Notes: generated by a model from the sequence alone, not told the origin. 64,000 nucleotides of DNA from Chloroflexota bacterium (GCA_026707405.1 JAPOWW010000004.1:213181-277180), one strand, 5' to 3'. Shown: positions 14,792-60,649, numbered from the stretch's first letter. Made by a program: numbers and translations.

Positions 14792-16122
14792 TCCGAATCG
14801 GAGTCGGTTCCGCTTACGCTTCGTAGCCGCTTCGTGATCTCGACTTCGTATCCACTTGAAGACGGCGCGTAAAAGCGGACACCCTTCAGAGACTCGGGCG
14901 TGTAGTCCTGTTCGACGAAGTGACCGGGATAGTCGTGTGCGTATTTGTAGCCTTGCCCGTAGCCCAGCGCCCTGGCGCCTGAGAACGCCTCGTTTCGGAG
15001 ATGGAGCGGGACCGTCAGATCGGCGCCCGCATCTATAGCGGCGCGGGCGGCTTGCAAGGCTTTTCCAGCGGAGTTGCTCTTGGGCGCGGTCGCCAGATAG
15101 ATGGTCGCCTGGGCCAGCGCGTAAGTCGCCTCCGGCAGACCCAGCCGTTCGACTGCCTGATATGCGGCGAGCGCCACCGATATGGCCCGCGGATCGGCGT
15201 TTCCTACGTCTTCGGAAGCCAGGATGAGTAGCCGTCGGGCTATGAATTCCGGCTGCTCGCCGGCGTGCAGCATCTTTGCCAGCCATAGCACGCTCGCGTC
15301 GGGGTCCGAACCGCGGAGGCTTTTGATGAAGGCCGAAATCGTGTCGTAGTGCTCGTCGGCCTTACGGTCGTAGCGGACGTGTCGAACCAAAACCGATCGT
15401 TCTACCGTGTCCAACTCGATGGTTTCGACACATTCGTCGATTGCAAGCTCCGCAGCCGCGTCGAGCCAGTTGAGGGCGATCCGCGCGTCGCCCCCGGAAC
15501 GGTCGGATATGAACCGTTTGGCGTCTCCGGATATCTCCAGCCCCAAGCCGCCAAGTCCCCGATCGGCGTCCGAAAGCGCCCGCTCCAGGATTCGCTCGAT
15601 CAGGTCCTGGGAGAGCGGGTTCAATCTGAGGACGCGAACCCGGCTGAGCAGCGGCGCAATGACCTCGAAATAGGGATTTTCGGTAGTGGCTCCCCAAAAC
15701 ACCACAGTCCCGTCTTCAACATAGGGAAGCAGCGCGTCCTGCTGGGACTTGCTGAAACGGTGCACTTCGTCCACGAACAGCAGGGTGTTCCGCTGATGCA
15801 GCTTGAACTCGTCTTGCGCCGACCTGGCCGCCGCCTTGATGTCCGCCACCCCGGCGGTCACGGCGCTGAGGGCTATGAAACGGCTCTCGGTAGCCGCCGC
15901 GGCCAGCGTCGCCAGGGTTGTCTTGCCGCTGCCCGGCGGTCCCCACAAGAGCGCCGACCATAGACGGTCGCGTTCGAGAGAGACCCAGAGCGGTCGACCG
16001 GGGTCCAGTAAGTGTTCTTGTCCCGCGAATTCGTCGAGCGATTCGGGACGCATCCGCGCGGCGAGCGGCGTCGATTTGAGTCTTGCATCGGCCGACGCGT
16101 GATCGAACAGATCGGGATTCAA
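14788..16122 (-). CDS. rarA: replication-associated recombination protein A (MgsA/RarA AAA+ ATPase)
   Basis: Walker A GPPGSGKTT, Walker B LLFVDEVHRF, MgsA helical lid and C-terminal domain. 444 aa. Confidence 0.9.
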   Translation of the reverse strand: MNPDLFDHASADARLKSTPLAARMRPESLDEFAGQEHLLDPGRPLWVSLERDRLWSALLWGPPGSGKTTLATLAAAATESRFIALSAVTAGVADIKAAARSAQDEFKLHQRNTLLFVDEVHRFSKSQQDALLPYVEDGTVVFWGATTENPYFEVIAPLLSRVRVLRLNPLSQDLIERILERALSDADRGLGGLGLEISGDAKRFISDRSGGDARIALNWLDAAAELAIDECVETIELDTVERSVLVRHVRYDRKADEHYDTISAFIKSLRGSDPDASVLWLAKMLHAGEQPEFIARRLLILASEDVGNADPRAISVALAAYQAVERLGLPEATYALAQATIYLATAPKSNSAGKALQAARAAIDAGADLTVPLHLRNEAFSGARALGYGQGYKYAHDYPGHFVEQDYTPESLKGVRFYAPSSSGYEVEITKRLRSVSGTDSDSD

Positions 16123-17717
16123 AGGAGCGCCCGCAAGAACTCCCTGATCCGGTCTCCGTTGCCGCGCGCGCCCTCGACCAATTCGTCATCGACCGGACCG
16201 CGCCTGTACCTTGCGTGGACGAACGCCTGTGTCAGCTCGGTGACGTCGGAGGCGTTCGACTCGCAGGCTTCCAGGAGATTCCGCTGGTACTCGATGGCGG
16301 TCTGGTTCGGGCTTCGCGCTATACCTGATCGCTCCGCCTCGCGCAGCGTGTTCAGGTAGATTCGCAGAATGCGCTCGCGGTTTGACAGCGCTTCAGCCGC
16401 CAGACCTCCCGAGAAAACCGAGGCTTTGCGGATACCCATCGCGTTCATTCCCCAGGCGGCCGCCTGTTCGCCTACCAACCTCAAAGCTTCGCCCGAAAGC
16501 TGTAGCAGCGAGGCCAGTCCGAGCAGGATGGACTTGAGGACTGCACCCAGCCCGGTCAGCACGATACTGAGCAGCTTGCCGATCTTCCATTGAGGGCGGG
16601 CGCTTGTGACACGTTTGTAGATGAGGAAGGCGGTGAAAGCCAGCACGGCCCACATAATCGCCGCCTGCAAAGACAGAAGAGCTGAGCCGTCGCTACCGGC
16701 GACCTCTGATACTGGTTGCGCGGCGGGGGCTTCAGGCACCGAGGAACCGCTGAATTGCAGCAGTGAAATCAGCTTGCCGAGCAGCGCGATCACCGCCACA
16801 AACGGAAGCATCAGGATCTGCCAGGCGACGAATACGACTTTGACCAGACCCGCCCAGAAGCCTTGGGCGTTCGGTATTTGGAAGCCGGGAATGAAAAGCG
16901 CGATCAGCAGCGCGAATCCGAGAACGAACAGGCTTGAACGGACCCAGTTTTCGGTGATCCCGGAAGCCTGCCGGGCGAGCTGCATCGACCAGGTGGAGGT
17001 CTGCCGGACGAGGTTTGCGTAGCTGTGCAGCACCAGCAACCCTATGAAATAGAACACGAGGATGGTCAGCGGAGCGGCCGGCGATACCACGGGCAAGTCG
17101 CCGCGCATTATCCCGCCGGCGGTCACCGCGGTAGTTGCTGTAAGGATCCCCCCTCCCGCGAATCCAACGGCCGTAATCTTGCCGACCGCGGCCTTTCGGT
17201 CGATCCAGCGCGCGCTGCTGGTCATCCAGCCGTAGTACTCAGGCGAGTTCACCGACGGAGGTATCTCGCTCTGCTGAGGATGGAGCTGCTCGATGTTGCG
17301 GGCCAGGAATGCGGCCGCCTGCCAGATAACGGCCAGGATCACGATCATGAGTATTGTCGACGTGTCCATGATTGCGAAGAACGATCCGATGAACCAGCCG
17401 TCTCGCTCGAAGTCGACGCCGGAGCCGCCCTGAACGATCCCAAGTCCGCGCAGGACCAAGAGCGAAGGAACGGCGAAAACGAGCCAGTCTTTCCATCCCG
17501 GTTTGTCGCCGCGCGCGCCCTGTCCCCGCATGAAGATGAAGAGACTTACGAGGAAGTTGCTCAACATCAGAGCGAAGGCCAGCCACGATTGCTGTGACGA
17601 GACACCGATTGCCATGAAGCCGAAGCCTAGGCCCAGCGCCAGCGTGCCAAAGCAAACCGACGCCAGCGACGCCAGGATCAGCCTGCTATATGGCCGCTCG
17701 ACCGTCTCGCCAGACAT
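16119..17717 (-). CDS. polytopic membrane protein with C-terminal DUF4129-like domain (MoxR/DUF58-associated)
   Basis: About 12 predicted TM segments. C-terminal soluble tail (...IEYQRNLLEAC...LTQAFVHARYRRGPVDDELVEGARG...) resembles DUF4129, the protein usually encoded after MoxR+DUF58. Overlaps rarA by 4 nt and DUF58 by 32 nt. Confidence 0.55.
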   Translation of the reverse strand: MSGETVERPYSRLILASLASVCFGTLALGLGFGFMAIGVSSQQSWLAFALMLSNFLVSLFIFMRGQGARGDKPGWKDWLVFAVPSLLVLRGLGIVQGGSGVDFERDGWFIGSFFAIMDTSTILMIVILAVIWQAAAFLARNIEQLHPQQSEIPPSVNSPEYYGWMTSSARWIDRKAAVGKITAVGFAGGGILTATTAVTAGGIMRGDLPVVSPAAPLTILVFYFIGLLVLHSYANLVRQTSTWSMQLARQASGITENWVRSSLFVLGFALLIALFIPGFQIPNAQGFWAGLVKVVFVAWQILMLPFVAVIALLGKLISLLQFSGSSVPEAPAAQPVSEVAGSDGSALLSLQAAIMWAVLAFTAFLIYKRVTSARPQWKIGKLLSIVLTGLGAVLKSILLGLASLLQLSGEALRLVGEQAAAWGMNAMGIRKASVFSGGLAAEALSNRERILRIYLNTLREAERSGIARSPNQTAIEYQRNLLEACESNASDVTELTQAFVHARYRRGPVDDELVEGARGNGDRIREFLRALL

Positions 17718-18924
17718 TCATTCCCTCCCGTCCCGCGACCGCGTGCGCTTCTATGCCCGCCGCGGCGGCGAGCGCCTTAGATTTCGAAGCGCCGAGCGCG
17801 TCGGTGAAGACCGCCGTGACATTGTGCCCCGCTTTCTTTCTGTCGAGAAGCGACCGTATTAGCTCGGCGTTACCGTTGCCGGTCACCACTATTAGCGTCG
17901 AGCCCCACGAGAGCCTGAGCGAGCCGGCGCGTAGCTCGTCTCCTATGGCTTCGCCTTCGAGCAAGCCGACTCTGGCCAGCAGGGCCAGAATCTCCATGAG
18001 ATGCTTGCGGCCCTTACCCACCGGCACCCGCGGCCGCCGTGAACCGCGGATCCTGCGCGCGCGCTCAGCCGGTATCGCCCGGCCGCCCACCATCACCCTG
18101 TCGAGACCATTGACGATCACGCCGACGGACTGCCTGTCTGATATCAAGGCGGAAGCGAGCGACGCGGCCACGACTATGCCGAGTTCGCTGGAGAAGCTGA
18201 CCCACTCCCTGGAATAGCCGCTAGGGTTAAGGTCGACGAAGATCGTCACTTCGTGACTTACCGCCGGTTCAAGCTGCCTAACGTGAATGATCCCCGTTCG
18301 GGCCGAGACCTTCCAGTTGATCATCCTCGGGCTGTCCGAAGGCTTGTATTCCCGGCAGCCAATCACTCTGGACGGATCCTCGTAGAGAATCTTCGGCGTC
18401 TTAATCGTGCCAAACGGCGTGGTCGAAGGCAGCCCCAGTTTGTCGAGCGGCACGATTTCCGGATAGACGATCACGTTTACGGGCCGGTCGAGACCGACCT
18501 GACGCTGCGCGAAGCCGAAAACGTCTCCGTACCGGGCCTCGAGCGGCCCGACGGGGTGGTAGCCCCGTCGGTTGCCGGACAGTTCATAGTCAATATCCAC
18601 ACTCGAACGCGGCTTGATGGCGATCACCCGGCGCATCACTTCGTAAGTCGCGAGCTCGTGCGGGAGCGTTTCGCGAACGTTGAGCCAGGGAATGGGCAAG
18701 AAGCTCCTGTTTTGCAGCGAAATCGTGACCGGGATCTTCTCCCCCAGAAATGCCCTGCCAGGCAGCTTCCTGCTGAGGCGGAGTCCGCGGCCGATGCTCC
18801 AGATCCAGAGCTTGCTCGCGGCGAAGATTCCAACGATTACGTAAACGAGTACGAAGAAGATGCCGAAGCCTGTTATGAGTCCCGCGGCGAGTAGCAGAGC
18901 CGCCGACACGAGGATGCCGGCCAC
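17686..18924 (-). CDS. DUF58 domain protein (vWA-like, MoxR-associated)
   Basis: Two N-terminal TM helices followed by a DUF58/vWA-like region (VTIFVDLNPSGYS...). Located 3 nt downstream of the MoxR ATPase gene. Confidence 0.7.
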   Translation of the reverse strand: MAGILVSAALLLAAGLITGFGIFFVLVYVIVGIFAASKLWIWSIGRGLRLSRKLPGRAFLGEKIPVTISLQNRSFLPIPWLNVRETLPHELATYEVMRRVIAIKPRSSVDIDYELSGNRRGYHPVGPLEARYGDVFGFAQRQVGLDRPVNVIVYPEIVPLDKLGLPSTTPFGTIKTPKILYEDPSRVIGCREYKPSDSPRMINWKVSARTGIIHVRQLEPAVSHEVTIFVDLNPSGYSREWVSFSSELGIVVAASLASALISDRQSVGVIVNGLDRVMVGGRAIPAERARRIRGSRRPRVPVGKGRKHLMEILALLARVGLLEGEAIGDELRAGSLRLSWGSTLIVVTGNGNAELIRSLLDRKKAGHNVTAVFTDALGASKSKALAAAAGIEAHAVAGREGMNVWRDGRAAI

Positions 18925-18927
18925 GGG

Positions 18928-19938
18928 CTATGACGCCAGTACTACTTCGGTGTCGGCGAGCACGGCGCCGGTTATGTCCTCGGCGGAGAATCCCCTGAGC
19001 GCGCTCTCCGGATCGACGAGGATGCGGTGCGTCAAAACGTCTGCGGCGACTTCCTTTACGTCGTCGGGCAGAACGTAGTCCCGCCCGCGAATTGCCGCAA
19101 GAGCCTGCGACGCCGCGAACAGCGCGAGCGACCCCCTGGTACTTGATCCGAGAGCCACGTTGGGATGATTCCGCGTCGACCGCGTTAGCGCCAGGATGTA
19201 GTCGGCAACCGTGTCGTCTACGTGAACCTGCCCGACGTCATTCTGCAATTCAGCCAGCAGACTCGTGTCCGTTACGGCGCCAATCGAATGGACCGGATGC
19301 CCGGAGACTTGATCGTAGAGAATGCGCTTCTCCTCATCGGTCGTGGGGTAACCGAGACTCAGCTTCATGAAAAACCGGTCTAACTGCGCTTCCGGAAGCG
19401 GGAAGGTGCCTTCGTATTCGACGGGGTTTTGCGTGGCCACCACGAGGAAAGGCTTGGGGAGTGCGTAGGTGACGCCGTCAGCCGATACCTGATTTTCCCC
19501 CATGCACTCGAGCATCGCCGACTGCGTTCTGGGTGTGGCGCGGTTGATTTCGTCGGCCAGCAAGACGTTGGCGAATACGGGACCTTCCTTGAATTCGAAC
19601 TCGGACGACTTGCTGTTGAAAACAGAGACTCCGGTTACGTCGTTGGGCAACAGGTCGGGAGTGAACTGAATGCGTTTGAACGTGCCGCCCAGCGAAATTG
19701 CGAGCGCCCGCGCGAGCATGGTCTTGCCTGTGCCGGGCAAGTCCTCCAGGAGCACGTGGCCCCGGCATATAAGGGCGACGATGATCTTCTCGATCTCCGC
19801 CTGCTTGCCGACTATTACTCTGCCGATGTTTTCGCTGACTTTTTTGGAAAAGTCTACGTAGGCGGACTGATCCAGGCGCTGCCCCCAAATCCGGTCGATG
19901 CGATTACCGGTCCGGTCGCTCCCCAGCGTCACTTGCAC
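18928..19938 (-). CDS. MoxR-family AAA+ ATPase
   Basis: VIVGKQAEIEKIIVALICRGHVLLEDLPGTGKTMLARA (Walker A), [19 protein letters not shown] (Walker B / sensor), AAA lid. GTG start. Confidence 0.9.
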   Translation of the reverse strand: MQVTLGSDRTGNRIDRIWGQRLDQSAYVDFSKKVSENIGRVIVGKQAEIEKIIVALICRGHVLLEDLPGTGKTMLARALAISLGGTFKRIQFTPDLLPNDVTGVSVFNSKSSEFEFKEGPVFANVLLADEINRATPRTQSAMLECMGENQVSADGVTYALPKPFLVVATQNPVEYEGTFPLPEAQLDRFFMKLSLGYPTTDEEKRILYDQVSGHPVHSIGAVTDTSLLAELQNDVGQVHVDDTVADYILALTRSTRNHPNVALGSSTRGSLALFAASQALAAIRGRDYVLPDDVKEVAADVLTHRILVDPESALRGFSAEDITGAVLADTEVVLAS

Positions 19939-23271: not shown

Positions 23272-23805
23272 CTAGGCCTTGATGCCCTGCTTGCTCTCCA
23301 TCTCAAGCAGCCTTCGCTTCAGATCAATACCGGCGGCGTAGCCTCCAACCTCCCCATTTGCCGATACGACTCGATGGCACGGAACGAATACGAGTGCGGG
23401 GTTGGAGCCGAGCGCCGCGCCCGCCGCGCGGGCGTATTTTCGTGCCGGATATCCAGCCGACTGCGCCACCCAACCGTAGGTCCGCGTCTCGCCCTTGGGA
23501 ATGAGTTGACAGGCCCGCCAGATTTTCCTTTGGAAGTCCGTTCCCTCCAGATCGAGGCCAGGCGTACTTCCGGCCGCGCCGGCAAGCCGTTCCCGCAATA
23601 GCTCGAGCCACGGTCGGGCGGGTTGGGCATCGATTGCCCGCCGTCCCGGCAGGCTCGCCTGTAGCGCTGCCGCTGCTTCGGCCGCGCTCGACTGCCCGAT
23701 TGTGGAGGCGATCAAACGTCCCGAACGCGCGGCTACGCCGCACCATCCCCAGCCATCGACTTTGTCTACGGCGATATGGTCCAAGTCCGTGATCGATTCG
23801 ACCAC
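23272..23805 (-). CDS. ogt: methylated-DNA--protein-cysteine methyltransferase
   Basis: Active-site PCHRVV plus the helix-turn-helix DNA-binding block (TYGWVAQSAGYPARKYARAAGAALGSNPALVFVPCHRVV). GTG start 2 nt after the upstream MoxR stop. Confidence 0.85.
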   Translation of the reverse strand: MVESITDLDHIAVDKVDGWGWCGVAARSGRLIASTIGQSSAAEAAAALQASLPGRRAIDAQPARPWLELLRERLAGAAGSTPGLDLEGTDFQRKIWRACQLIPKGETRTYGWVAQSAGYPARKYARAAGAALGSNPALVFVPCHRVVSANGEVGGYAAGIDLKRRLLEMESKQGIKA

Positions 23806-23807
23806 GA

Positions 23808-24755
23808 TCAGGCGGCCGTTGCCCCGGGAACCGCAATCGTGTCCAGGATTTCCTGGACCACGTCGCGCGTATCGACATTGCGTATTCGGGCCGCCGGACT
23901 AACTATCAGTCGATGCGCCAGCGTTGGCACGCACAGATGCTTTACGTCGTCTGGAATTACGTAGTCGCGTCCCCGGAAGCTGGCCAGGACTTGAGCGCCT
24001 CTGAACAGGGCCAGGCTGCCCCGGGTACTCGCTCCGAGATATATCTCCCGATGGTCTCGCGTGGCGCGCACGAGGTCCACGATGTATTCCCGCAGGACCG
24101 CGTCGACGTATATGTCTTTGATCTCTTCCTGTATTTGCAGCAGGTCCTCAATCCCGATCACCTGCTCCAACTCTTCGATCGGCTGCGTATGTAAGTGAGC
24201 CTCTATGACCTCAAGCTCGTCGGCGCGGCTCGTGTATCCCATGCTGATGCGCATAAAGAAGCGGTCAAGCTGCGACTCCGGCAGCGGGTAGGTCCCCTCA
24301 TATTCGATGGGGTTCTGAGTTGCCATAACCAGGAAGGGTTCCGGCAAGTTGTAAGTCACTCCGTCGACCGTGACCTGCTGCTCCTCCATCGCTTCGAGAA
24401 GCGAGGACTGGGTCTTGGGCGTGGCCCGATTGATCTCGTCCGCCAGAACGATCTGGGCCATTATCGGCCCCGGTCGAAACTCAAATTCAAGCGTTTTCTG
24501 GTTGAAGATCGAAACTCCGGAAACATCGCTAGGCAGGATGTCAGGCGTGAACTGGACGCGCTTGAAGGTGCACCCTATGGATTGGGATATAGCTTTTGCC
24601 AGGGTGGTCTTGCCGACGCCCGGAACGTCCTCGATAAGGACGTGTCCTCGAGCGACGAGGGCGACCAGTACCAGTTCTACCACGTCGGGCTTTCCCAGAA
24701 TGACTTTCTCTACGTTTTCACTGACTCTTCGTGCGATGTTGCGAATGTCTTGCAT
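23808..24755 (-). CDS. MoxR-family AAA+ ATPase (second paralog)
   Basis: [57 protein letters not shown]. About 60-65% identical to the MoxR at 18928-19938 over the ATPase core. ATG at 24755 ([11 protein letters not shown]...) preferred over the ORF-track start at 24794. Confidence 0.9.
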
Positions 24756-24895
24756 AACTTCCCCCGGACATCGAAATGGAGAACGATAGGTCAACTAGCT
24801 CGTTTGGCTGCGCGCATTCTAACTGTTTCTAAGGCGACGTTCGCCAATCGCCTTTGACAGCGTCCGTCTGGAGGTCTAGTCTCGAATCCCGCAGC

Positions 24896-24993: not shown

Positions 24994-27390
24994 CTATTCG
25001 GCTCTCTTCGGCAATACGAACTGCCTGAGCGATTCGGTTCCCAGCACGAGCAATCTGCCGTCCAGCTCGCTTATCCAAAGCGCCCGAATGTCGGAAAAGA
25101 AGTTGTCGGCGCCGCGATAGATGAACTGGCGCACGAACCGCCCTTCATTGCCGTCGCGCTTGTCGATTTCGACGATGCGGTTGTTGCCGTCGTCGACCAC
25201 GTAAAGGCTCTCCGCGGTGGTATCCGTGTACACGCGGGTGGCTTTGGTGATCGGGCGGTCCAGCCCGCTGATCTGAAACCGCAATTTCTTGCCGCCCCGG
25301 TACCGCTCGATCGTGTTGTCGGACAGGAGCACGAAAATGTCGCCGTCTATAGCCATGTCTATGGCGGTGCTGATGTCGACGTCCTCCGACGGATCGAAGT
25401 AGTCGATAGGGTCGACTTCGTACCCATTGGCGGTCGGCTGGTATTTGTGAATTCGATTGGCGGCGGGGTCCAGGATGTACATGTTGTTGTTGAAGTTGTC
25501 GACCGCGACCGGGAGTTTCCATTGTTCGGTTCCGCTGACCCTTAACAGCTGCGGGGAGCGATCGGGGACGATGCTGTACACGTTGAATTCGCTGTCAATC
25601 ACCAGCAGACTCAACTCGCGCGCGACCATGCCGATGATGTTCGTGACGGCGGCTTGACCGACCTGCTCTCCTTCACGGAGCACGACAGAGCCGCGTTTAG
25701 CCGCGCGATATTCGATCAGCCTCTTATCGACGGCGTCGATTACGTACTGGACGTCCTGTCTAACTTCGAGCTGGGGAACAATCCTTGCTATACCGACCCC
25801 AGTGTCGTTGAACTCATCGATCGTGGCGCTCGTAACGAGGCGATAGACCTGGTTAAGACGGTCTTGCTCGGCCTGTATCTGTGCGAGAAGACGGTTAACT
25901 TCACCTTCGTTGTAGCCCGCGTCGATCGCCTGGTTGGCCGCGTCGATCGCATCCTGCAACCCTGCCAGAGCGGGGACTCTTTCTCTTTCTCGCACTGCCG
26001 CGTCGAAATAGCGTTTCGCCTCGGCGAATGAGTTTGCGGCGCTCCCCAGCGGCGCGGTTTGCTCAGGTTCGGCCCTCGTTTCGACCTGTCTTTCTGACTG
26101 CGGCGTTTGATTCGTTGCGACGCTGGGCGATTCGTCTCTTCGAATCGCCAGTATCAGTAGTACGGCGACGAGGGCTACTACCGAAAAGAGCAGGAGTATC
26201 GAGCCCGTCCCAAAGCGTGACCGCGAGCGGCCTCCGGAGGCCAGTGAATCACGACCGCCGAACAGCGACATGAAGACTCCTCGAACTCCGCCCCTTCCGG
26301 GATCGTCCACATCGGGCCACGGTTTGAGCACGGTATCTCGTTTCGATTCCATTACCTGTCTGTTCAGTTCGTCCAACTCTTCAGGCCCGCCGGCTATCGC
26401 CTGCCGCCGCCGCTCGTAGTCGGTCATGGGCGGACTATCGAATCCCGTCTGTCTGGCATATGGGGATGATTCGGAGGTGTCTTGCGGTCGTGACGCGAAG
26501 ACTCTGACGATGCCTTTCAAGGCCATCACCGGCAGCACAAGGACTAGCAGCAACATGCCTATTACGAATTCGCCGATCTTCGCTGCGGCGCCTTTGGAAG
26601 GACGCCCCGCCGCCGTTGCGCCCGCCTGGGCGGTGCGCCAGTCAGGTTCCAGACCGGCTGCGCGGCCTTCCGGCGCGACCGGCGGCCTGGGCCGCGTAGT
26701 GGTTTGCCGCGGCGGGCGTGCGGCTGGGCGATCGAACGCCTCCGGCACTGCAGCGGATTCCGGCTTCAGGATGAGCACGTCGCAATCGACGGCGCCGCGT
26801 TGCGCGGCCAACGCGGCTATCTGGTACGCGGAGTCTTCGGGCGGGTAGCGGACCAGAAGCCCGCGGATTTCCCTTTCGTGCAGAACACCGGCCACAACCG
26901 AGGAAGTCAGGACGATCAAGTCGCTTTCCGTCAGGTCCGCCCGGAGGATCTCTATTTCCTTGTCAAACGGCAGGCCGTCGTCAGGGGTCGTAATGTCGGT
27001 TCCCGGTTCGGGGCGCGCGTTAAGCCGGTTATCCCGAAAAATGAAGAGCTGCGTCGGTGGAAGCTGGGCTATGAACAAATCCTTGCCGCGTACCACAACG
27101 CCAGTGCTTCCCAGATCGAGCCGCTCTTCGTTGGGACGGGCCGCCGCTGCCGCCGCGCTCGAGCCAGCCCTCATGCATCGCATCAGACTGGATATCGCGC
27201 TACTGGTGTCGCCGGAGTAGTAGGCGCGGACGGCGGCGTCGGCGAAATGCGAGCACAGCCGCTCGTTTCCGCCCTCCAGCACAAGATATAGGTGGCCGGC
27301 CGATCCGCCGACCGGCGGGTCGGCGATTCTTATTCTCGAGCTTGCCAGTCCGGGCTGGCCGTGAAGAAAGCTAGCCTGTGCGAATTCCAA
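24994..27390 (-). CDS. membrane protein: N-terminal cytoplasmic PP2C-like (probably catalytically degenerate) domain, two TM helices, C-terminal NHL-repeat beta-propeller
   Basis: N-terminal region parallels PP2C blocks (LVLEGGNE vs ADGMGG; GSTGVVVRGKDLFIAQLPPTQLFIFRDNRL vs GTTAV...GDSRAYLLRDGEL; LIVLTSSVV vs LLCSDGL) with metal-ligand positions substituted. TM helices FVIGMLLLVLVLPVMAL and ILLLFSVVALVAVLLILAI. C-terminal repeats YVVDDGNNRIVEIDK and MYILDPAANRIHKY are NHL-like. Confidence 0.5.
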   Translation of the reverse strand: MEFAQASFLHGQPGLASSRIRIADPPVGGSAGHLYLVLEGGNERLCSHFADAAVRAYYSGDTSSAISSLMRCMRAGSSAAAAAARPNEERLDLGSTGVVVRGKDLFIAQLPPTQLFIFRDNRLNARPEPGTDITTPDDGLPFDKEIEILRADLTESDLIVLTSSVVAGVLHEREIRGLLVRYPPEDSAYQIAALAAQRGAVDCDVLILKPESAAVPEAFDRPAARPPRQTTTRPRPPVAPEGRAAGLEPDWRTAQAGATAAGRPSKGAAAKIGEFVIGMLLLVLVLPVMALKGIVRVFASRPQDTSESSPYARQTGFDSPPMTDYERRRQAIAGGPEELDELNRQVMESKRDTVLKPWPDVDDPGRGGVRGVFMSLFGGRDSLASGGRSRSRFGTGSILLLFSVVALVAVLLILAIRRDESPSVATNQTPQSERQVETRAEPEQTAPLGSAANSFAEAKRYFDAAVRERERVPALAGLQDAIDAANQAIDAGYNEGEVNRLLAQIQAEQDRLNQVYRLVTSATIDEFNDTGVGIARIVPQLEVRQDVQYVIDAVDKRLIEYRAAKRGSVVLREGEQVGQAAVTNIIGMVARELSLLVIDSEFNVYSIVPDRSPQLLRVSGTEQWKLPVAVDNFNNNMYILDPAANRIHKYQPTANGYEVDPIDYFDPSEDVDISTAIDMAIDGDIFVLLSDNTIERYRGGKKLRFQISGLDRPITKATRVYTDTTAESLYVVDDGNNRIVEIDKRDGNEGRFVRQFIYRGADNFFSDIRALWISELDGRLLVLGTESLRQFVLPKRAE

Positions 27391-27660: not shown

Positions 27661-27675
27661 AAGGAGGTAGCGATA
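27661..27675 (+). promoter_or_regulatory. Shine-Dalgarno AAGGAGG plus in-frame non-canonical AUA start of infC
   Basis: AAGGAGG at 27661-27667 and ATA at 27673-27675 in the infC frame. Upstream leader 27391-27660 is markedly AT-rich. Confidence 0.55.
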
Positions 27676-28212
27676 GCTAAGGACAGTAGGGAACTTCGAG
27701 TTAACGAGAGGATTCATATTCGGCAGGTCCATCTGATTGACGACAGAAATGTCTCAATGGGAACGGTGCCGACAGACCAGGCTTTGAGAATGGCGCGCGA
27801 ACGGGGGCTCGATCTTGTAGAAGTCTCTCCGACTCAGCGCCCACCCGTAGCAAAGATCCTCGACTACGGGAAATTCAAGTATGAGCAGAATCGGAAGGAC
27901 CGGGAGAACCGAAAGCACCAGAAGGCCGGCGAGGTCAAGGAAGTTCGCTTTCGACCTCTTACAAGCGATCACGACGTGAACTTCAAAGTCCGAACGATGC
28001 AGAAGTTCCTCAAGGCCGGCAACAAGGTCAAGGTCACTGTTCGTATGCGCGGCCGCGAGCGTATACATCCAGAGCTGGCTGCGACCCTTTTGACTAAGGT
28101 TGTCGACAAGCTCAAGCATCTTTCAACCGTAGAGCGTCCTGTTTCGGCGGAACGGTCGGACCAGATAAGCATCATCCTTTCTCCGGTACGCGGCGCTTCG
28201 AGCGGGAAGTAG
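27673..28212 (+). CDS. infC: translation initiation factor IF-3
   Basis: The ORF track starts at ATG 27757 (MGTVPTDQALRMARERGLDLVEV...), but the IF-3 N-domain (KDSRELRVNERIHIRQVHLIDDRN) is encoded in-frame upstream with no canonical start. Frame opens after TAA 27658-27660. ATA at 27673 with a perfect SD is the best start. C-terminal IF-3 domain KEVRFRP...VKVTVRMRGRE is clear. Confidence 0.85.
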   Translation: MAKDSRELRVNERIHIRQVHLIDDRNVSMGTVPTDQALRMARERGLDLVEVSPTQRPPVAKILDYGKFKYEQNRKDRENRKHQKAGEVKEVRFRPLTSDHDVNFKVRTMQKFLKAGNKVKVTVRMRGRERIHPELAATLLTKVVDKLKHLSTVERPVSAERSDQISIILSPVRGASSGK

Positions 28213-28290: not shown

Positions 28291-28914
28291 TTGCAGGTCA
28301 ATGTTCGCTGGCACGACGAAGAAGTGCCCCGACCCGGGGGCGGCGGTACTTACGTTCGGCAGGTAGCCTGGATCGTAAGCGAAGATATCGGAGAGGACAG
28401 GGTTCGCTATCTGGCTTACCTGGGCGCGAACCCCCGTGTCACGAAAGACCTGAAACTCGAGTTCGGTGCTCTCTATCCGGAACTTGAGGTCGATTGGGAC
28501 GAGCTTGAAGCGCTGGTCGAAAAGCCCAAAACTCGGGTTCAAGACCTCACGTACGACGAGCTTGCCTTCCGGATGCGATCGATACTCGGCGAACACGAGT
28601 ACGAAATGGACGCCGTTGATACCGAATTCGGCCGCGGATGGCACAGACCGCTAAAGGAGCTGGAAAAGCTGCTCGGCAGCCCATCCGTGATAGCAAGATT
28701 CGAGCGCACTTCCGGATCTGTTTTTCGGTACTTGTGCGAATCGCATCCAGATTATGCGTATGCCGTGCTAAAAGTGAGGCTATTATTAGAGTCGCGAACC
28801 GATGAGCTTAGCGCTCTGGTAAAGGGCGAGGCGAAATTTGGAAAGGGTGGAAAAGCCCGTGAGCGTCGGGACTACTATGTCAAGGCTCTTCAATACCATG
28901 TAGGCGGAGGCTAG
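28291..28914 (+). CDS. hypothetical protein (207 aa), no recognisable domain
   Basis: Coding-like composition. Followed by a clean intrinsic terminator. Start TTG 28291 or GTG 28324. Confidence 0.45.
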   Translation: MQVNVRWHDEEVPRPGGGGTYVRQVAWIVSEDIGEDRVRYLAYLGANPRVTKDLKLEFGALYPELEVDWDELEALVEKPKTRVQDLTYDELAFRMRSILGEHEYEMDAVDTEFGRGWHRPLKELEKLLGSPSVIARFERTSGSVFRYLCESHPDYAYAVLKVRLLLESRTDELSALVKGEAKFGKGGKARERRDYYVKALQYHVGGG

Positions 28915-30867: not shown

Positions 30868-31498
30868 GAAATGAGAAATCCTGTTCACGATACGACCGTG
30901 AGCGGTGATAATAGGGAGACGCTCGACGCCGCTCGGTATGTCACGCGGGTTGCGTTCCAACATTTCTAATCGGGGAGCTTGGCTGGTGGCGGTATCGGCC
31001 GCATAGGCTGTTAACGTCGGCCGCGGGCACCCACCTGGTAGATCCAGGGGACGAATTTCAGTGGCAGCCGGCGGCCGTGGAGCGTCGCCTCGCTATGCTG
31101 AACAGCGTCTGTCTCTCAGCTTCGCGTGGAGACCGTTTCGGAGCGCACCGGGCGCCGGTGCGCTCAACACTTTGATGGGCTCTATGGCTTCGTCCGCGAC
31201 GCGGCGGAAAACCGGACAGATCGGCTCGGCGTATTCATAACCAAACAGTCCTGGTCTGTTGTGGGGACTAACACGTGCCGTTACTTTGTCGTTGCCATTG
31301 GGCTGTCCGGCCCAATACTCAAACAAACGTTCGTAAGACGTAATCGGTGTGATAACGTTCGCAGCGCCGAGTTTCGCGTCGAGAGAAAGCCGGGTAATTC
31401 CTTTCGGCGTTCTCGCGGCGGGCTTCGGAATCAGCTCACCGGCTGCTGACAACCGGCTCGGCAGTCGCTGGCATTGCGCTTCGAGAAGAGATGCCCCA

Positions 31499-32062
31499 TT
31501 GCGAAACGTCAATGACGGTCTTCTGGCGGACCGAATAGCAATCGGCGACGAGCGCGCGCTCGCGGAGTGTTACGACAGGTTCGCGGGGATCATAAACGGT
31601 CTGGCACGCAGTGCGTTGGGCGCCGCCGCAGCCGAAGAGATCGTACAGGAGACCTTCCTGCGGGTCTGGTCGAGAGCCTCGACTTATGTTCCCGAAAAAG
31701 GAAGCCTCAACGCCTGGGTAATGCGTATTGCGAGAAACCTGATTATCGACGAGCTTCGCCGCCGGAAGAGCCGCCCGTCCGCGCGTCTGACGTGGGAATC
31801 GATCGAGGACACCGAAGAACGCATCGCGTCCGAGCCTGACGAGGAAGTGTGGCAGACCGAGCTCCGGGCGGCGGTCAGAGCGGCTTGCGACGAGCTGACG
31901 AGCGACCAGAAGGCGGTCATCGCGCTTGCCTACTTTGGCGGATTGACACAGTCCCAAGTCGCCAGGGAGCTTGGCATACCCCTCGGAACGGTCAAAACGA
32001 GGACCAGAGCCGCGCTCTTCAAGCTCCGGGACATTATGGCCGGGGGGGACCTTTGGACGTAG
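31499..32062 (+). CDS. ECF (sigma-70 family) RNA polymerase sigma factor
   Basis: Region 2 (ERALAECYDRFAG...ETFLRVW) and region 4 HTH (LTSDQKAVIALAYFGGLTQSQVARELGIPLGTVKTR). The ORF-track start at 31349 is probably too long; TTG 31499 gives a typical ECF N-terminus. Confidence 0.8.
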   Translation: MRNVNDGLLADRIAIGDERALAECYDRFAGIINGLARSALGAAAAEEIVQETFLRVWSRASTYVPEKGSLNAWVMRIARNLIIDELRRRKSRPSARLTWESIEDTEERIASEPDEEVWQTELRAAVRAACDELTSDQKAVIALAYFGGLTQSQVARELGIPLGTVKTRTRAALFKLRDIMAGGDLWT

Positions 32063-32066
32063 TCGC

Positions 32067-32819
32067 GTGAACGACGAAAGGCTTCAAGAACTGCTCGCCG
32101 CCGCTGCGCTGGGTACACTCGACGAATCCGAGCGCGCCGCGCTCGACAAGGCGCTGGTCGAAGATCCGTCTCTCCACGATGAGCTTGATGGGCTCTATGA
32201 GACCGCAGCCTTGCTCGCCTGGGGCGCTGAACCGGTTCGCCCCCGTCTTGAGATTCGCCAAGCCGTATTGCGCCGGGCGCGGGACGCCCGCGTCGAAGAG
32301 CCGCGGCCGGCCACTGGCTGGAGAAACTCCCTCTCGCTGATATTTGCGGGACTGTCCGCCGTGGCCGTCGCCGCGGCTGTGGTTATAGCGGTACTGCTGG
32401 GCGGCCGCCTTGCCGAAATGGAAGGCGCGGCAGTCGCGGGGCGCGAGCGCGCCTCGAAGCAGGTGGCGGCTCTACAAACGCTGGTGGAAGATGGAGGCGC
32501 CGGCATCACGCTCAGCGGAACCGAGAACGCGCCTGATGCGACCGCGTTCCTCTTGATGACAAGCGACAAGAACGTCGCCGTGCTCATTTGCAGCGGTCTT
32601 AAGAAACTGTCACCGGATCGCGCCTACCAGCTATGGCTCGCCAATCCCGACGGAAAGATGAGCGGCGGCATGTTAAATGCCGACTCAGACGGATTTGCCA
32701 TGATGGTCGTGGAAAGTCCCATGCCGTTTTCCATGTTCCAGTCGTTTGGAGTTACCGTGGAGCCAGCCGAGGGGAGTCCAGGGCCTACAGGCGACATGGT
32801 GCTGGGCAGCGACGCGTAG
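32067..32819 (+). CDS. anti-sigma factor, RskA-like (N-terminal anti-sigma domain, TM helix, C-terminal RskA domain)
   Basis: GTG 32067 lies 4 nt after the sigma stop. N-terminus VNDERLQELLAAAALGTLDESERAAL. TM LSLIFAGLSAVAVAAAVVIAVLL. C-terminus YQLWLANPDGKMSGGMLN...GVTVEPAEGSPGPTGDMVL matches the anti-sigma-K/RskA C-domain. Confidence 0.7.
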   Translation: MNDERLQELLAAAALGTLDESERAALDKALVEDPSLHDELDGLYETAALLAWGAEPVRPRLEIRQAVLRRARDARVEEPRPATGWRNSLSLIFAGLSAVAVAAAVVIAVLLGGRLAEMEGAAVAGRERASKQVAALQTLVEDGGAGITLSGTENAPDATAFLLMTSDKNVAVLICSGLKKLSPDRAYQLWLANPDGKMSGGMLNADSDGFAMMVVESPMPFSMFQSFGVTVEPAEGSPGPTGDMVLGSDA

Positions 32820-43495: not shown

Positions 43496-43534
43496 CTGTC
43501 TAGCCTCCCTTTGCGCCCCGGCGGCGCCGCGCCG

Positions 43535-44737
43535 CTAATACGAAATCTCGACACGCGAGCCTCCGTTGTCCGAAGACCTCGCGATCGAGTCCATGATGAC
43601 ATCACACTTGTAGCCGTCTTCGAATGTCGCCCCCAGCGGCGCCACGTCCTTGTCGTTGACTATGCAGTCGAGGAAGTGGTGCAGTTCATGGGCGAACGTG
43701 TGCTCCCATCCGATTATGTGCCCGTGCGGCCACCAGTGTTCCCAGTATGGATGGTCCGCCTCAGTGACGAGCACGTTTCGGAACCCGCCGGCCTGCGACG
43801 GCTGAGTGTCGGCGAGGAATACCTCAAGCTCGTTGAGACGTTCCAGGTTGAACGAAATCGAACCCTTGGATCCGTTGATCTCGAACGTGTTCAGGTTTTT
43901 CCGGCCCATCGCGAAGCGCGTGGCTTCCATCGTCCCGATGGCGCCGTTTTGAAACTCGAAGAGGCTGACGAATGCGTCGTCAACGTCAACCGGGCCCGTC
44001 TTCGAGGAGTCGTCCTCCAGGGGCCTTTCCTTGATGAAGGTCTTGAGCAGGCCGTTAACAGCCTTGGGTTCGCCGATGAGGAATCGCGCCAGGTCGATTA
44101 TGTGCGCGCCCAGGTCGCCCAGCGCTCCGCTTCCCGCTATGGCCTTGTCCAGACGCCACACCCTGGGAAACTGCGGATCGATGATCCATTCCTGACAGTA
44201 TCTGGCGCGGAAATGGAAGATATCGCCCAGGTGTCCCGCCTGAATCAGCTCCCGGGCCTGCACGATTGCGGGCACGAAGCGGTAGTTGAAGCCGCACATG
44301 TGCTTGACTCCCGCGGCCTCGGCGGCTTCGAGCATTGCTCTCGACTCGTCGGGGTTCCTGCCAAGGGGTTTCTCGCAAATCACGTGCTTTCCGGCCTGGG
44401 CCGCCGCGATGCTCGGCTCGGCGTGGAGATTGTTAGGCCCGCCGTTATCGAGAACCTGTACATCGCTGTCGGAAATCAGATCGCGCCAATCGGTGCAGTG
44501 CCGCTGGAATCCGAAGCGCTTGGCGGCGTCGGCGACCGGTCCCTCGGAGCGTCCGGCGATGTTGACGAGCACCGGATTTGCCGCGGGCGGGTACATCATG
44601 TAGGCGAGCTTCTTGTATCCGTTGGCGTGCGCCTTGCCCATGAAGGCGTAGCCGAGCATTCCGATGCCTATCGATGGGATTTCTCCCGCCGAGTCCGAAA
44701 CGCTTCCCATCGTCGTGAAACCGACATCGTCTGCCAT
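43535..44737 (-). CDS. Gfo/Idh/MocA-family oxidoreductase
   Basis: Rossmann IGIGMLGYAFMGKAHA, EKP motif (CEKPLG), long C-terminal dimerisation domain. N-terminal extension may be over-called. Confidence 0.85.
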   Translation of the reverse strand: MADDVGFTTMGSVSDSAGEIPSIGIGMLGYAFMGKAHANGYKKLAYMMYPPAANPVLVNIAGRSEGPVADAAKRFGFQRHCTDWRDLISDSDVQVLDNGGPNNLHAEPSIAAAQAGKHVICEKPLGRNPDESRAMLEAAEAAGVKHMCGFNYRFVPAIVQARELIQAGHLGDIFHFRARYCQEWIIDPQFPRVWRLDKAIAGSGALGDLGAHIIDLARFLIGEPKAVNGLLKTFIKERPLEDDSSKTGPVDVDDAFVSLFEFQNGAIGTMEATRFAMGRKNLNTFEINGSKGSISFNLERLNELEVFLADTQPSQAGGFRNVLVTEADHPYWEHWWPHGHIIGWEHTFAHELHHFLDCIVNDKDVAPLGATFEDGYKCDVIMDSIARSSDNGGSRVEISY

Positions 44738-44824
44738 GTGAGGCCCTCCGGTGAGCGGCCTTCCTTCCGTACGCGAAAGCCCTATCGGCGTGGGCGGAAA
44801 ACGTACCGCAAACCCCGCCGGTTA

Positions 44825-44850
44825 GCAAACGCCGGACACTCGGCGTTTGC
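44825..44850. promoter_or_regulatory. perfect 26-bp palindrome GCAAACGCCG-gacact-CGGCGTTTGC (candidate operator or hairpin) in a divergent intergenic region
   Basis: 10-bp perfect inverted repeat with a 6-nt spacer, 88 bp upstream of the minus-strand oxidoreductase start (44737) and about 200 bp upstream of the ZIP transporter gene. Confidence 0.3.
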
Positions 44851-45048
44851 CGCCGCAACCGGACGCGGCATTCGGTTTCGAGCCCGTGGACAGGCTGTTT
44901 AACGCACTGATTCCATCACAAGAATGTCCGGCTCTCTGCGGGATCTACATTTGGCCTGGGCAATTGACAGTTCGTAGTATTTCTCAATTCGGCTACCAGT
45001 TCCAACGGCGTCGGCGTTGATGTTTTGTAGATACGTGAGGGGCTAGCT

Positions 45049-59278: not shown

Positions 59279-60649
59279 TTGGGCGGGATGGCGGGATATG
59301 CCGCTGTTTTGGCAATCGCCGGATGCAACGGCGACGAACCGCCCTCCCCGGAAGTCCCATCCCCGCCCAAGCAACGGCAAGTGGCTGTGCCGACCGTGGC
59401 CGCCCCGACCGTGGCCGCGCCTACCGCGGAGCCTCCACCGGCTCCAACCTCACCAGCTGCCAAGGCGGCAACCACGGCGCCACCTCCGCCGACTCCGACG
59501 ACCGAAGCCGCGCCCACCGCTGAGGCCTCGCCGACGGCCGAGGCGGAAGCGGAGGCCGAGCCAACGCCCACTCCCGAAGTCGCCGTTACCAAAGAGGCCC
59601 AAGAGCCGGTAACCGGCGGGCTGAGACCACTAGAGGCATACGGCTTCCAGGCCCACCTCTATAACCAGGACCGGTCGCTTCTCACGCGTCTTACCAGGGA
59701 GGCCGGCTTCGATTGGCTCAAGCAGCAGGTCGTCTGGTTCTATACCGAGCCCGAGCAGAAAGGCGGTTATGACTGGCGTGAGCTGGACAAGGTCGTGACC
59801 GCCGTTAATGACGCCGGCCTTAAGTTCCTGATTAGCGTCGTTAGAGCGCCTACTTGGGCGCTTAACGGCCGCGATCACGGGCCTCCGGAGAATCTGGCGG
59901 ATCTGACCGATTTCATGCAGGCGCTGTCCAGCAGGTACCGGGGACATGTTCACGCGTACGAAGTGTGGAACGAAGCGAACCTCTCCCGCGAATGGGGATA
60001 CGGCCGCCTGAACGCCGGTGAGTTTGTCGAGTTGCTGGGCGCGGGACACCGTGGAATCAAGGCAGGCGATCCCGACGCGGTCATCATAGGCGGCGCGCTC
60101 ACGCCCGCCGGAGACGTGGATGTTCCCGATCAGAAGATCCAGGCCATCGACGATCTGCGATTCTTGCGGCAGATGTACGAGTACAACGGCGGGGTGGTAA
60201 GGGACTATTTCGACGCCTGGGGAATGCATCCCGGCGGGTTCAACAACGCGCCCGACCAGGCGATGGGGTCCGACAGAGGGAACGGCTGGAACGGCCATCA
60301 CAGCTTCTACTTTCTGCGGTTCACCGAGCACCGCCAGGTGATGGAGGAGTTTGGCGACGGCCACAAGCCCATCTGGTTCACCGAGTTTGGCTGGAGCACT
60401 GAAAACCAAGATCCGAACTATGGCTTCGGCAAAGACAACTCCGAGCAAGACCAGGCGGATTTCCTGGTCAGGGCGTTCGATGTGATCAGAGCCGACTTTC
60501 CCTACGTGACGCATATGTTCGTCTGGAATCTGAATTTCCAGATGGTCGTCGGACCGGAAGATGAAAAGTATCCGTTCGGCGTCATCAAGAGCGACGGCAG
60601 CCCGAGACCCGCCTACGAAGCATTGAAGACGATGGACAAGGGGCGTTAG
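59279..60649 (+). CDS. secreted lipoprotein with Pro/Ala/Thr-rich linker and C-terminal glycoside hydrolase (GH5-like TIM barrel) domain
   Basis: Lipobox LAIAG-C. About 90-aa PAT-rich low-complexity linker. Catalytic-core-like blocks YEVWNEAN (acid/base NE) and IWFTEFGWS (nucleophile E). True start possibly upstream (in-frame TRRRLLGG Tat-like motif with no canonical start). Confidence 0.6.
   Translation: MGGMAGYAAVLAIAGCNGDEPPSPEVPSPPKQRQVAVPTVAAPTVAAPTAEPPPAPTSPAAKAATTAPPPPTPTTEAAPTAEASPTAEAEAEAEPTPTPEVAVTKEAQEPVTGGLRPLEAYGFQAHLYNQDRSLLTRLTREAGFDWLKQQVVWFYTEPEQKGGYDWRELDKVVTAVNDAGLKFLISVVRAPTWALNGRDHGPPENLADLTDFMQALSSRYRGHVHAYEVWNEANLSREWGYGRLNAGEFVELLGAGHRGIKAGDPDAVIIGGALTPAGDVDVPDQKIQAIDDLRFLRQMYEYNGGVVRDYFDAWGMHPGGFNNAPDQAMGSDRGNGWNGHHSFYFLRFTEHRQVMEEFGDGHKPIWFTEFGWSTENQDPNYGFGKDNSEQDQADFLVRAFDVIRADFPYVTHMFVWNLNFQMVVGPEDEKYPFGVIKSDGSPRPAYEALKTMDKGR
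59390..59418 (+). repeat. short tandem repeat (two near-perfect copies of CCGACCGTGGCCGC, period 15) inside the PAT-rich linker coding region
   Basis: Encodes VAAPT-VAAPT within the low-complexity linker of the lipoprotein. Confidence 0.5.

Follow-up and report, generated by a model that had tools for sequence, protein, structure and literature searches.

A membrane-anchored protein with a decayed PP2C-fold domain and a six-bladed NHL propeller in Chloroflexota, a candidate receptor-like pseudo-phosphatase

A stretch of 64,000 nucleotides from the genome of a Chloroflexota bacterium (GCA_026707405.1, JAPOWW010000004.1:213181-277180), here called the window, contains on its minus strand a frame of 798 codons that runs from 27390 to 24994 without interruption, according to both the open reading frame (ORF) list and the translation. 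Its product is a membrane-anchored protein composed of a decayed PP2C-fold domain, a membrane anchor, and a three-helix stalk bearing a six-bladed NHL propeller. The gene and the parts of its product are as follows.

24994 to 27390, minus strand: whole gene, 798 codons and the stop (24994-24996), with a TTG start at 27390 (ORF list and translation)
26755 to 27390, minus strand: residues 1-212, domain of the PP2C/PPM fold whose active site is degenerate
26566 to 26754, minus strand: residues 213-275, Pro/Ala/Arg-rich linker, poorly conserved (alignment A1) and predicted to be disordered
26509 to 26565, minus strand: residues 276-294, first hydrophobic segment VIGMLLLVLVLPVMALKGI with a conserved LVLP (Kyte-Doolittle 2.5)
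26200 to 26508, minus strand: residues 295-397, juxtamembrane stretch that contains a conserved YERRRQAIAGGPEEL motif and becomes Arg-rich just before the membrane span (alignment A1)
26143 to 26199, minus strand: residues 398-416, main transmembrane helix ILLLFSVVALVAVLLILAI (Kyte-Doolittle 3.4)
25855 to 26142, minus strand: residues 417-512, disordered acidic/Ser/Thr/Pro linker (417-447) and three-helix stalk (448-512), from the AlphaFold2 (AF2) model
24997 to 25854, minus strand: residues 513-798, six-bladed NHL-type beta-propeller

This is a real, single gene for a protein of about 800 amino acids. A scan with one genome per species yielded 25 loci, of which 21 are in Chloroflexota metagenome-assembled genomes (MAGs), and these 21 carry full-length orthologues of 782-810 amino acids with 34-97% identity. 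The closest genomes share the TTG start and the first residues, (M)EFAQAS, and the corresponding codon of the sister clade is ATG. Two separate genes are ruled out, since the open frame and the length are kept in all orthologues; an earlier reading of this DNA from the sequence alone (hereafter, the original prediction) had likewise taken it as one ORF, and all of the peptides that it quoted were found in the translation (LEGGNE at residues 38-43, PPT at 111-113, TSS at 162-164, MYILDPAANRIHKY at 637-650 and YVVDDGNNRIVEIDK at 730-744). The bin names RHO, COS and SB are common among the 21 MAGs and resemble those of sponge-microbiome MAGs, so that these bacteria are probably sponge-associated in part.

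When the window protein was used alone, no match was found in Pfam or NCBIfam even at E<=10, and thus none to the curated models for PP2C, PP2C_2, SpoIIE and Stp1, or to Pfam NHL; against the sequences of the PDB, the sole match was a marginal one, to Pizza, a designed NHL protein (E=0.09). Because such single-sequence searches are uninformative, the alignment with PP2C phosphatases originally made by hand could be neither confirmed nor refuted from one sequence. A profile search without PP2C or NHL similarity had been named as grounds for abandoning the assignment, and the single sequence does look negative in this respect, but profiles of the family and structure searches confirm both domains.

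For the N-terminal part, a profile of 14 sequences covering residues 1-225 recovered only PP2C phosphatases from the PDB (tPphA, E=3.6e-9; PstP, 3.4e-7; Stp1; PppA), and a family profile of 45 sequences recovered the same kind of protein with much lower E-values (tPphA, 6.7e-25; PppA, 2.8e-16; PstP, 1e-13). Alignment by hhalign of this domain with P0181, a bona fide PP2C protein that matches Pfam PP2C_2 and PP2C and was used as the reference, gave a probability of 95.6% over 205 columns. Among 45 relatives scanned, one matched SpoIIE and one matched PP2C, both weakly, and the relatives' best match (E=2.9e-11) was far below the Stp1 cutoff. The domain thus has the PP2C fold (a beta-sandwich flanked by helices) as well as detectable sequence homology to PPM/PP2C proteins, as the two profiles, hhalign and the structure search all indicate, and the best matches in both sequence and structure are PstP (Rv0018c) and other group-I PP2Cs (tPphA, Stp1 and PppA).

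For the C-terminal part, the AF2 model of residues 421-798 consists of a disordered linker, three long helices (448-512) and about 24 beta-strands; the helices, at positions 28-47, 51-70 and 75-92 of the model, have predicted local distance difference test (pLDDT) values of 90-94. A Foldseek search with this region placed the lumenal thioredoxin (Trx)-NHL part of SOQ1 at the top (7djk, E=2.6e-9), with the NHL domains of TRIM2, TRIM3 and Brat at about 1e-8 (TM-score of about 0.58 on the target). The family profile matched Pizza (7.9e-14), the NHL domain of Thin (3.1e-11) and the PknD sensor (1RWI, 4.4e-9) in the PDB and, more weakly, SOQ1 (1e-5) and TRIM71 (5e-5). In Pfam, NHL matches five of the 45 relatives (best 2.2e-6) and the six-bladed DUF5128 model matches four. 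Six Y-V-x-D...N-x-R-I repeats are readable near residues 548, 594, 637, 677, 729 and 771, the fourth of which contains IDMAIDGD, a motif that is invariant from the window genome to a Parcubacteria protein in alignment A1. Both the six-bladed fold and the NHL repeat signature are therefore present, and the NHL-type repeats that had first been noticed by eye form a six-bladed propeller according to AF2, Foldseek, the family profile and the Pfam matches of the relatives.

Between the two domains, the linker of residues 213-275 is of low confidence in the model (pLDDT of about 41 for residues 213-235), and the segment at 398-416 is the one hydrophobic segment common to the whole family. Exactly one such segment lies between the domains in 110 of 135 full-length relatives, including the most divergent syntenic orthologue (locus L020). 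In the flanks of the span, these 110 have on average 3.5 lysines and arginines on the N-side and 1.9 on the C-side, with more on the N-side in 76 proteins and fewer in 14. A hydrophobic stretch near the N-terminus occurs in only one family member. Because of this single span and the positive charge on its N-side, the parsimonious reading of the sequences is that the N-terminus is inside and the C-terminus, with the propeller, is probably outside the cell; the juxtamembrane region of residues 295-397 would then be cytoplasmic. The family as a whole fits the PstP-like layout of one span with an N-in charge bias, and the window protein adds an extra hydrophobic segment to it. This first segment (276-294) is a clade-specific addition and probably not a full membrane span, and with its conserved LVLP it would then be a membrane-associated or re-entrant element. 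Two transmembrane helices had been described at the outset, and both hydrophobic segments do exist, but two true spans would put both domains on the same side of the membrane; an extracytoplasmic propeller is favored by the layout of the relatives, while the term "periplasmic" goes beyond the evidence.

It is unlikely that both segments cross the membrane as a hairpin in this clade, which would keep both domains cytoplasmic and expose only a loop of about 100 residues. The two segments do have Kyte-Doolittle scores of 2.5 and 3.4 and are retained in both the window clade and its sister, but the single span in 110 of the 135 relatives, L020 included, argues against such a hairpin. The charge distribution also places the loop inside: the flank before the second segment is positive and that after it is not (three lysines and arginines against none in the window protein, and 3-7 against 0-3 in most other members with two segments).

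The residues expected at the active site of a PP2C phosphatase are largely missing from the N-terminal domain. In the hhalign comparison with P0181, the Asp of DGxGG (motif II) is replaced by E39, which is followed by a two-residue deletion; GDSR is replaced by P111-P112-T113-Q114, with P112 in place of the GDS Asp; and SDG (motif VIII) is replaced by S163-S164-V165, with S164 in place of the Asp. The position of the motif I Asp (NED) has no acidic residue (A16 by hhalign, R21 by MAFFT), and D202, within D202-C203 at the DN of motif XI, is the sole retained ligand Asp. The replacements originally proposed for ADGMGG, GDS and SDG thus involve peptides that are all present, except that SDG pairs one residue away from the TSS first chosen for it. 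The same state was found when 138 N-terminal domains of the family were tabulated against the P0181 reference. The GDS Asp is Pro in 109 of them, with the Gly of GDS retained in 111; no domain has Asp at the SDG position, which is taken by Ser, Thr, Arg, Pro or Gly; the phosphate-binding Arg of GDSR is lost throughout (Leu, Val, Gln or Ala); and the motif II position holds Glu in 77, Asp in 19 and Gln in 15. None of the five canonical Asp residues is kept in 115 domains, and one is kept in the remaining 23. Compared with tPphA or P0181, the flap lacks about 22 residues; it lies in a low-confidence part of the model, and a G-P-A loop is conserved at the old cleft. In short, the domain lacks most of the conserved acidic metal ligands, as well as the GDS Asp and the phosphate-binding Arg of PPM/PP2C enzymes, and on sequence grounds it is a pseudo-phosphatase whose decay is family-wide, so that the loss of catalytic residues first suspected in one protein extends across all 138.

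An active but atypical phosphatase or hydrolase, in which Glu39 and Asp202, and perhaps other residues, would hold a single metal, is distinctly unlikely. The predominance of Glu or Asp at motif II and an Asp next to the motif XI position in 68 of the 138 domains are compatible with such an enzyme, and the retention of the GDS Gly suggests selection on the old cleft; however, the SDG Asp is absent from every domain, Pro mostly occupies the place of the GDS Asp, the motif I Asp and the phosphate-binding Arg are gone, Glu39 is replaced by Gln in the sister clade, and the flap, which is needed for binding of the substrate and the third metal, is truncated.

The propeller is the best-conserved part of the protein: between the window clade and the sister clade, the last 300 or so residues, which make up most of it, are about 55% identical, compared with about 32% for the N-terminal domain. 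That the propeller is itself an enzyme, like some six-bladed NHL/SGL-type lyases and lactonases, with the cytoplasmic domain as a regulatory or anchoring remnant, is very unlikely. A weak profile match to peptidyl-alpha-hydroxyglycine alpha-amidating lyase (E=2e-4), one SGL match among the 45 relatives and the invariance of the acidic motif IDMAIDGD point in that direction, but the residues conserved family-wide in the propeller (Y638, D682, D733 and R738) are the structural positions of the NHL repeat consensus, and the best matches are to NHL domains of the binding type (PknD, TRIM, Brat and SOQ1).

When 1.84 billion cluster representatives were searched exhaustively with HMMER, 7114 matched at E<=1e-3, 2990 at E<=1e-10 and 264 at E<=1e-30; the last figure is a lower bound on the number of clusters in the family, and some of the weaker matches may be ordinary PP2C or NHL proteins. 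Among the 150 best representatives, the majority are 650-880 amino acids long with two matched stretches. The N-terminal domain is present in 131 of these 150, so that the same architecture, which the original prediction had proposed to look for in other genomes, is indeed kept; the others, with three exceptions, fall below 600 amino acids and are probably fragments. All cluster names that were found read "hypothetical protein" and carry labels of Limnocylindria, Anaerolineae or unclassified Chloroflexota. These labels point to Chloroflexota; the presence of the family in genomes resembling those of Patescibacteria (the Candidate Phyla Radiation, CPR) is known from the loci. No Pfam or NCBIfam model covers the family, as judged from the 45 relatives scanned, and in literature searches we found no description of an architecture combining a PP2C fold with an NHL propeller, in agreement with the original impression that this is not a described family; a 2025 census of bacterial PP2C domain combinations makes no mention of NHL or propellers (PMC12088040).

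Distant family members were also found on two contigs labeled "uncultured Pseudomonadales" (L024 and L025), with a CPR-like context of ftsH, a stand-alone 5'-3' exonuclease gene, bPH_2, smpB and trxB, and a fragment 70% identical to the window protein (P0010) is labeled "Gammaproteobacteria bacterium". These contigs and P0010 are probably mis-binned or mislabeled MAG sequences.

The family is a widespread, unannotated variant of the membrane-anchored PPM proteins. Both of its domains are of known kinds, and their combination, together with the family-wide decay of the phosphatase, is what is new. As in PstP, the PP2C domain comes first, and after it come a linker, a membrane span and a domain that is probably extracellular; this situation is different from that of PstP in that the window protein has lost most metal ligands and the phosphate-binding Arg and has a shorter flap, the C-terminal part is an NHL propeller, and no gene for a pknA/pknB-type kinase was found nearby. 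The sensor of PknD (Rv0931c), a membrane protein with one span, is a six-bladed NHL propeller as well and lies outside the cell, as is probable for the propeller here, and it is among the closest sequence relatives of this propeller with a solved structure (Pizza matched the same blade columns of the profile). In PknD, however, the cytoplasmic module is an active Hanks kinase instead of a dead phosphatase fold, and the three-helix stalk before the propeller is a difference as well. TAB1, the C-terminal domain of RssB, PHLPP2 and EsrG1 are also pseudo-phosphatases of the PP2C fold but have no specific sequence relationship to this family, and to our knowledge none of them is membrane-anchored or fused to an extracellular sensor. 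SOQ1 of Arabidopsis thylakoids is also a membrane-spanning protein, in which an NHL propeller and a phosphatase-superfamily (HAD) domain lie on opposite sides. The likeness to SOQ1 is an analogy only, since its phosphatase domain is HAD and not PP2C, a Trx-like domain precedes the NHL propeller, and the protein is eukaryotic.

From these features we infer, with somewhat more confidence than doubt, that the protein is a receptor-like pseudo-phosphatase scaffold, which binds instead of dephosphorylating. The original prediction of a signaling or scaffold protein is borne out in its architecture. Because it is the best-conserved part of the protein, the propeller is likely to have a conserved ligand or partner outside the cell or in its envelope. 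The dead PP2C domain would bind a cytoplasmic partner without hydrolysis, for example a phospho-Ser/Thr protein or a Hanks-type kinase, and the G-P-A loop and the fold may have been kept in order to do so, the domain serving as a scaffold, decoy or "reader" in a manner comparable to TAB1 and RssB. Descent from a PstP-like membrane-anchored PP2C seems most plausible, because the nearest active relatives found, the PstP-like proteins P0181 and P0182 (PP2C domain, membrane span and extracellular domain), match at about 100 bits.

Several observations weigh against a receptor-like pseudo-phosphatase scaffold. The window protein carries two hydrophobic segments and not one; of the five AF2 models made for the C-terminal region, a single one is confident (pLDDT of 75, compared with 48-58 for the others); and no kinase, FHA or STAS gene was found among the neighbors examined, either here or in distant relatives. 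An acidic residue (Glu or Asp) occupies motif II in 96 of the 138 N-terminal domains, and an Asp lies one column off the motif XI position in the 68 mentioned above. Because these two acidic positions are partly retained, there is a small chance that some metal or ligand binding persists in the old cleft.

A broader version of the proposal, in which the family would be an ancient single-span receptor of Chloroflexota and Patescibacteria, with the propeller sensing an envelope ligand and the dead PP2C domain capturing phospho-Ser/Thr proteins or kinases, is tentative and rather doubtful. If true, it would provide a bacterial counterpart of the receptor-type pseudo-phosphatases and a new class of component in bacterial Ser/Thr signaling. 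Such signaling has been cataloged mainly through kinases and PP2C proteins detectable with Pfam, and this family, with hundreds of sequence clusters of fixed architecture, escapes such censuses. Should the dead PP2C domain prove to be a binding module linked to an extracellular NHL sensor, the family would represent a type of membrane receptor with a pseudo-enzyme output and an accessible case for studying the function of bacterial pseudo-phosphatases, in poorly studied phyla (Chloroflexota and CPR). The family merits the definition of a domain family, which would end its annotation as "hypothetical".

The genes around the family gene are of the housekeeping kind and give no functional partner. 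Synteny is strong: a divergent infC adjoins the gene in each of the 21 Chloroflexota loci, and a 207-codon ORF and then aspS lie beyond it. On the downstream side are moxR, ogt (6-O-methylguanine DNA methyltransferase) and a quinolinate phosphoribosyltransferase (nadC-like) gene. Two groups of moxR-type genes lie on this side.

23272 to 24794, minus strand: orphan MoxR (AAA_3) ATPase gene and ogt, which begins 2 nt after the moxR stop
16119 to 19938, minus strand: a further MoxR gene, about 5 kb away from the orphan one, in a complete MoxR-DUF58-DUF4129 operon of the classical MoxR type

All 21 loci keep the moxR-ogt pair, including L020, in which it no longer lies next to the large gene. The original prediction had suggested a search for neighboring Ser/Thr kinases, and none was found among the neighbors examined: the ORFs examined in the window include no kinase, and the PstP-type linkage to Hanks kinases and cell-division genes was not found. 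PADLOC returned nothing for the window protein, and a defense system is thereby rejected.

Ternary conflict systems of MoxR, vWA and beta-propeller proteins are encoded as a trio with conserved linkage, which was not found at the window locus, and in the Esr pathway MoxR and vWA proteins occur with propeller sensors and a pseudo-phosphatase-FHA protein (PMC13622651). That the window protein is the sensor of such a threat-sensing system, with the adjacent MoxR as its partner, is highly improbable: the MoxR gene does lie 199 bp downstream on the same strand, its product scores 42 bits with the Pfam model bpMoxR, above the cutoff of 27, and the set of components resembles the Esr pathway, but no vWA or DUF58 gene is beside it, PADLOC is negative, the pair is on the other side of infC in L020, a 5-kb insertion separates moxR from the large gene in L004, no MoxR is nearby in any of the 11 distant loci (metagenome loci found with alignment A1), and the propeller is the most conserved part and not a diversifying one, amid housekeeping genes. 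The adjacent MoxR is thus no conserved partner of the family, and a link at the family level was rejected on the relocation in L020, the insertion in L004 and the distant loci.

The distant members are either bracketed by a bPH_2-domain gene and smpB or found close to tsaB-like, rplJ and rplY genes. In the CPR-like loci L024, L025 and L033, smpB follows the family gene by about 40-50 bp on the same strand, and in L025 and L033 a bPH_2-domain gene precedes it; in another group, the family gene lies between a tsaB-like gene and rplJ. That translation genes recur as neighbors may be no more than a consequence of small genomes rich in housekeeping genes.

Some other features of the window were also recognized. 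The infC gene is located at 27661-28212 on the plus strand. In the ORF list it starts with the ATG at 27757, yet the Pfam IF3_N match begins at profile position 20, and the in-frame sequence upstream of this ATG is KEVAIAKDSRELRVNERIHIRQVHLIDD. Because an ATA codon (27673-27675) lies 5 nt past a GGAGG Shine-Dalgarno sequence, IF3 probably starts at this non-canonical ATA and would have about 179 amino acids instead of 151. Autoregulation of infC is known, and a non-canonical ATA start would fit it. The 207-amino-acid ORF between infC and aspS (28291-28914, plus strand) has no match in Pfam, NCBIfam or PADLOC and is 40-100% identical in all Chloroflexota loci that extend across the position; rpmI-rplT usually follows infC at this place. 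Two long ORFs of 463 and 456 amino acids (43511-44902 and 59279-60649, both plus strand) have no Pfam match, and each overlaps a long ORF on the opposite strand. At 31349-32819 on the plus strand, a gene for a sigma-70 factor of the extracytoplasmic function (ECF) type overlaps an RskA-type anti-sigma gene, forming an ordinary sigma/anti-sigma pair.

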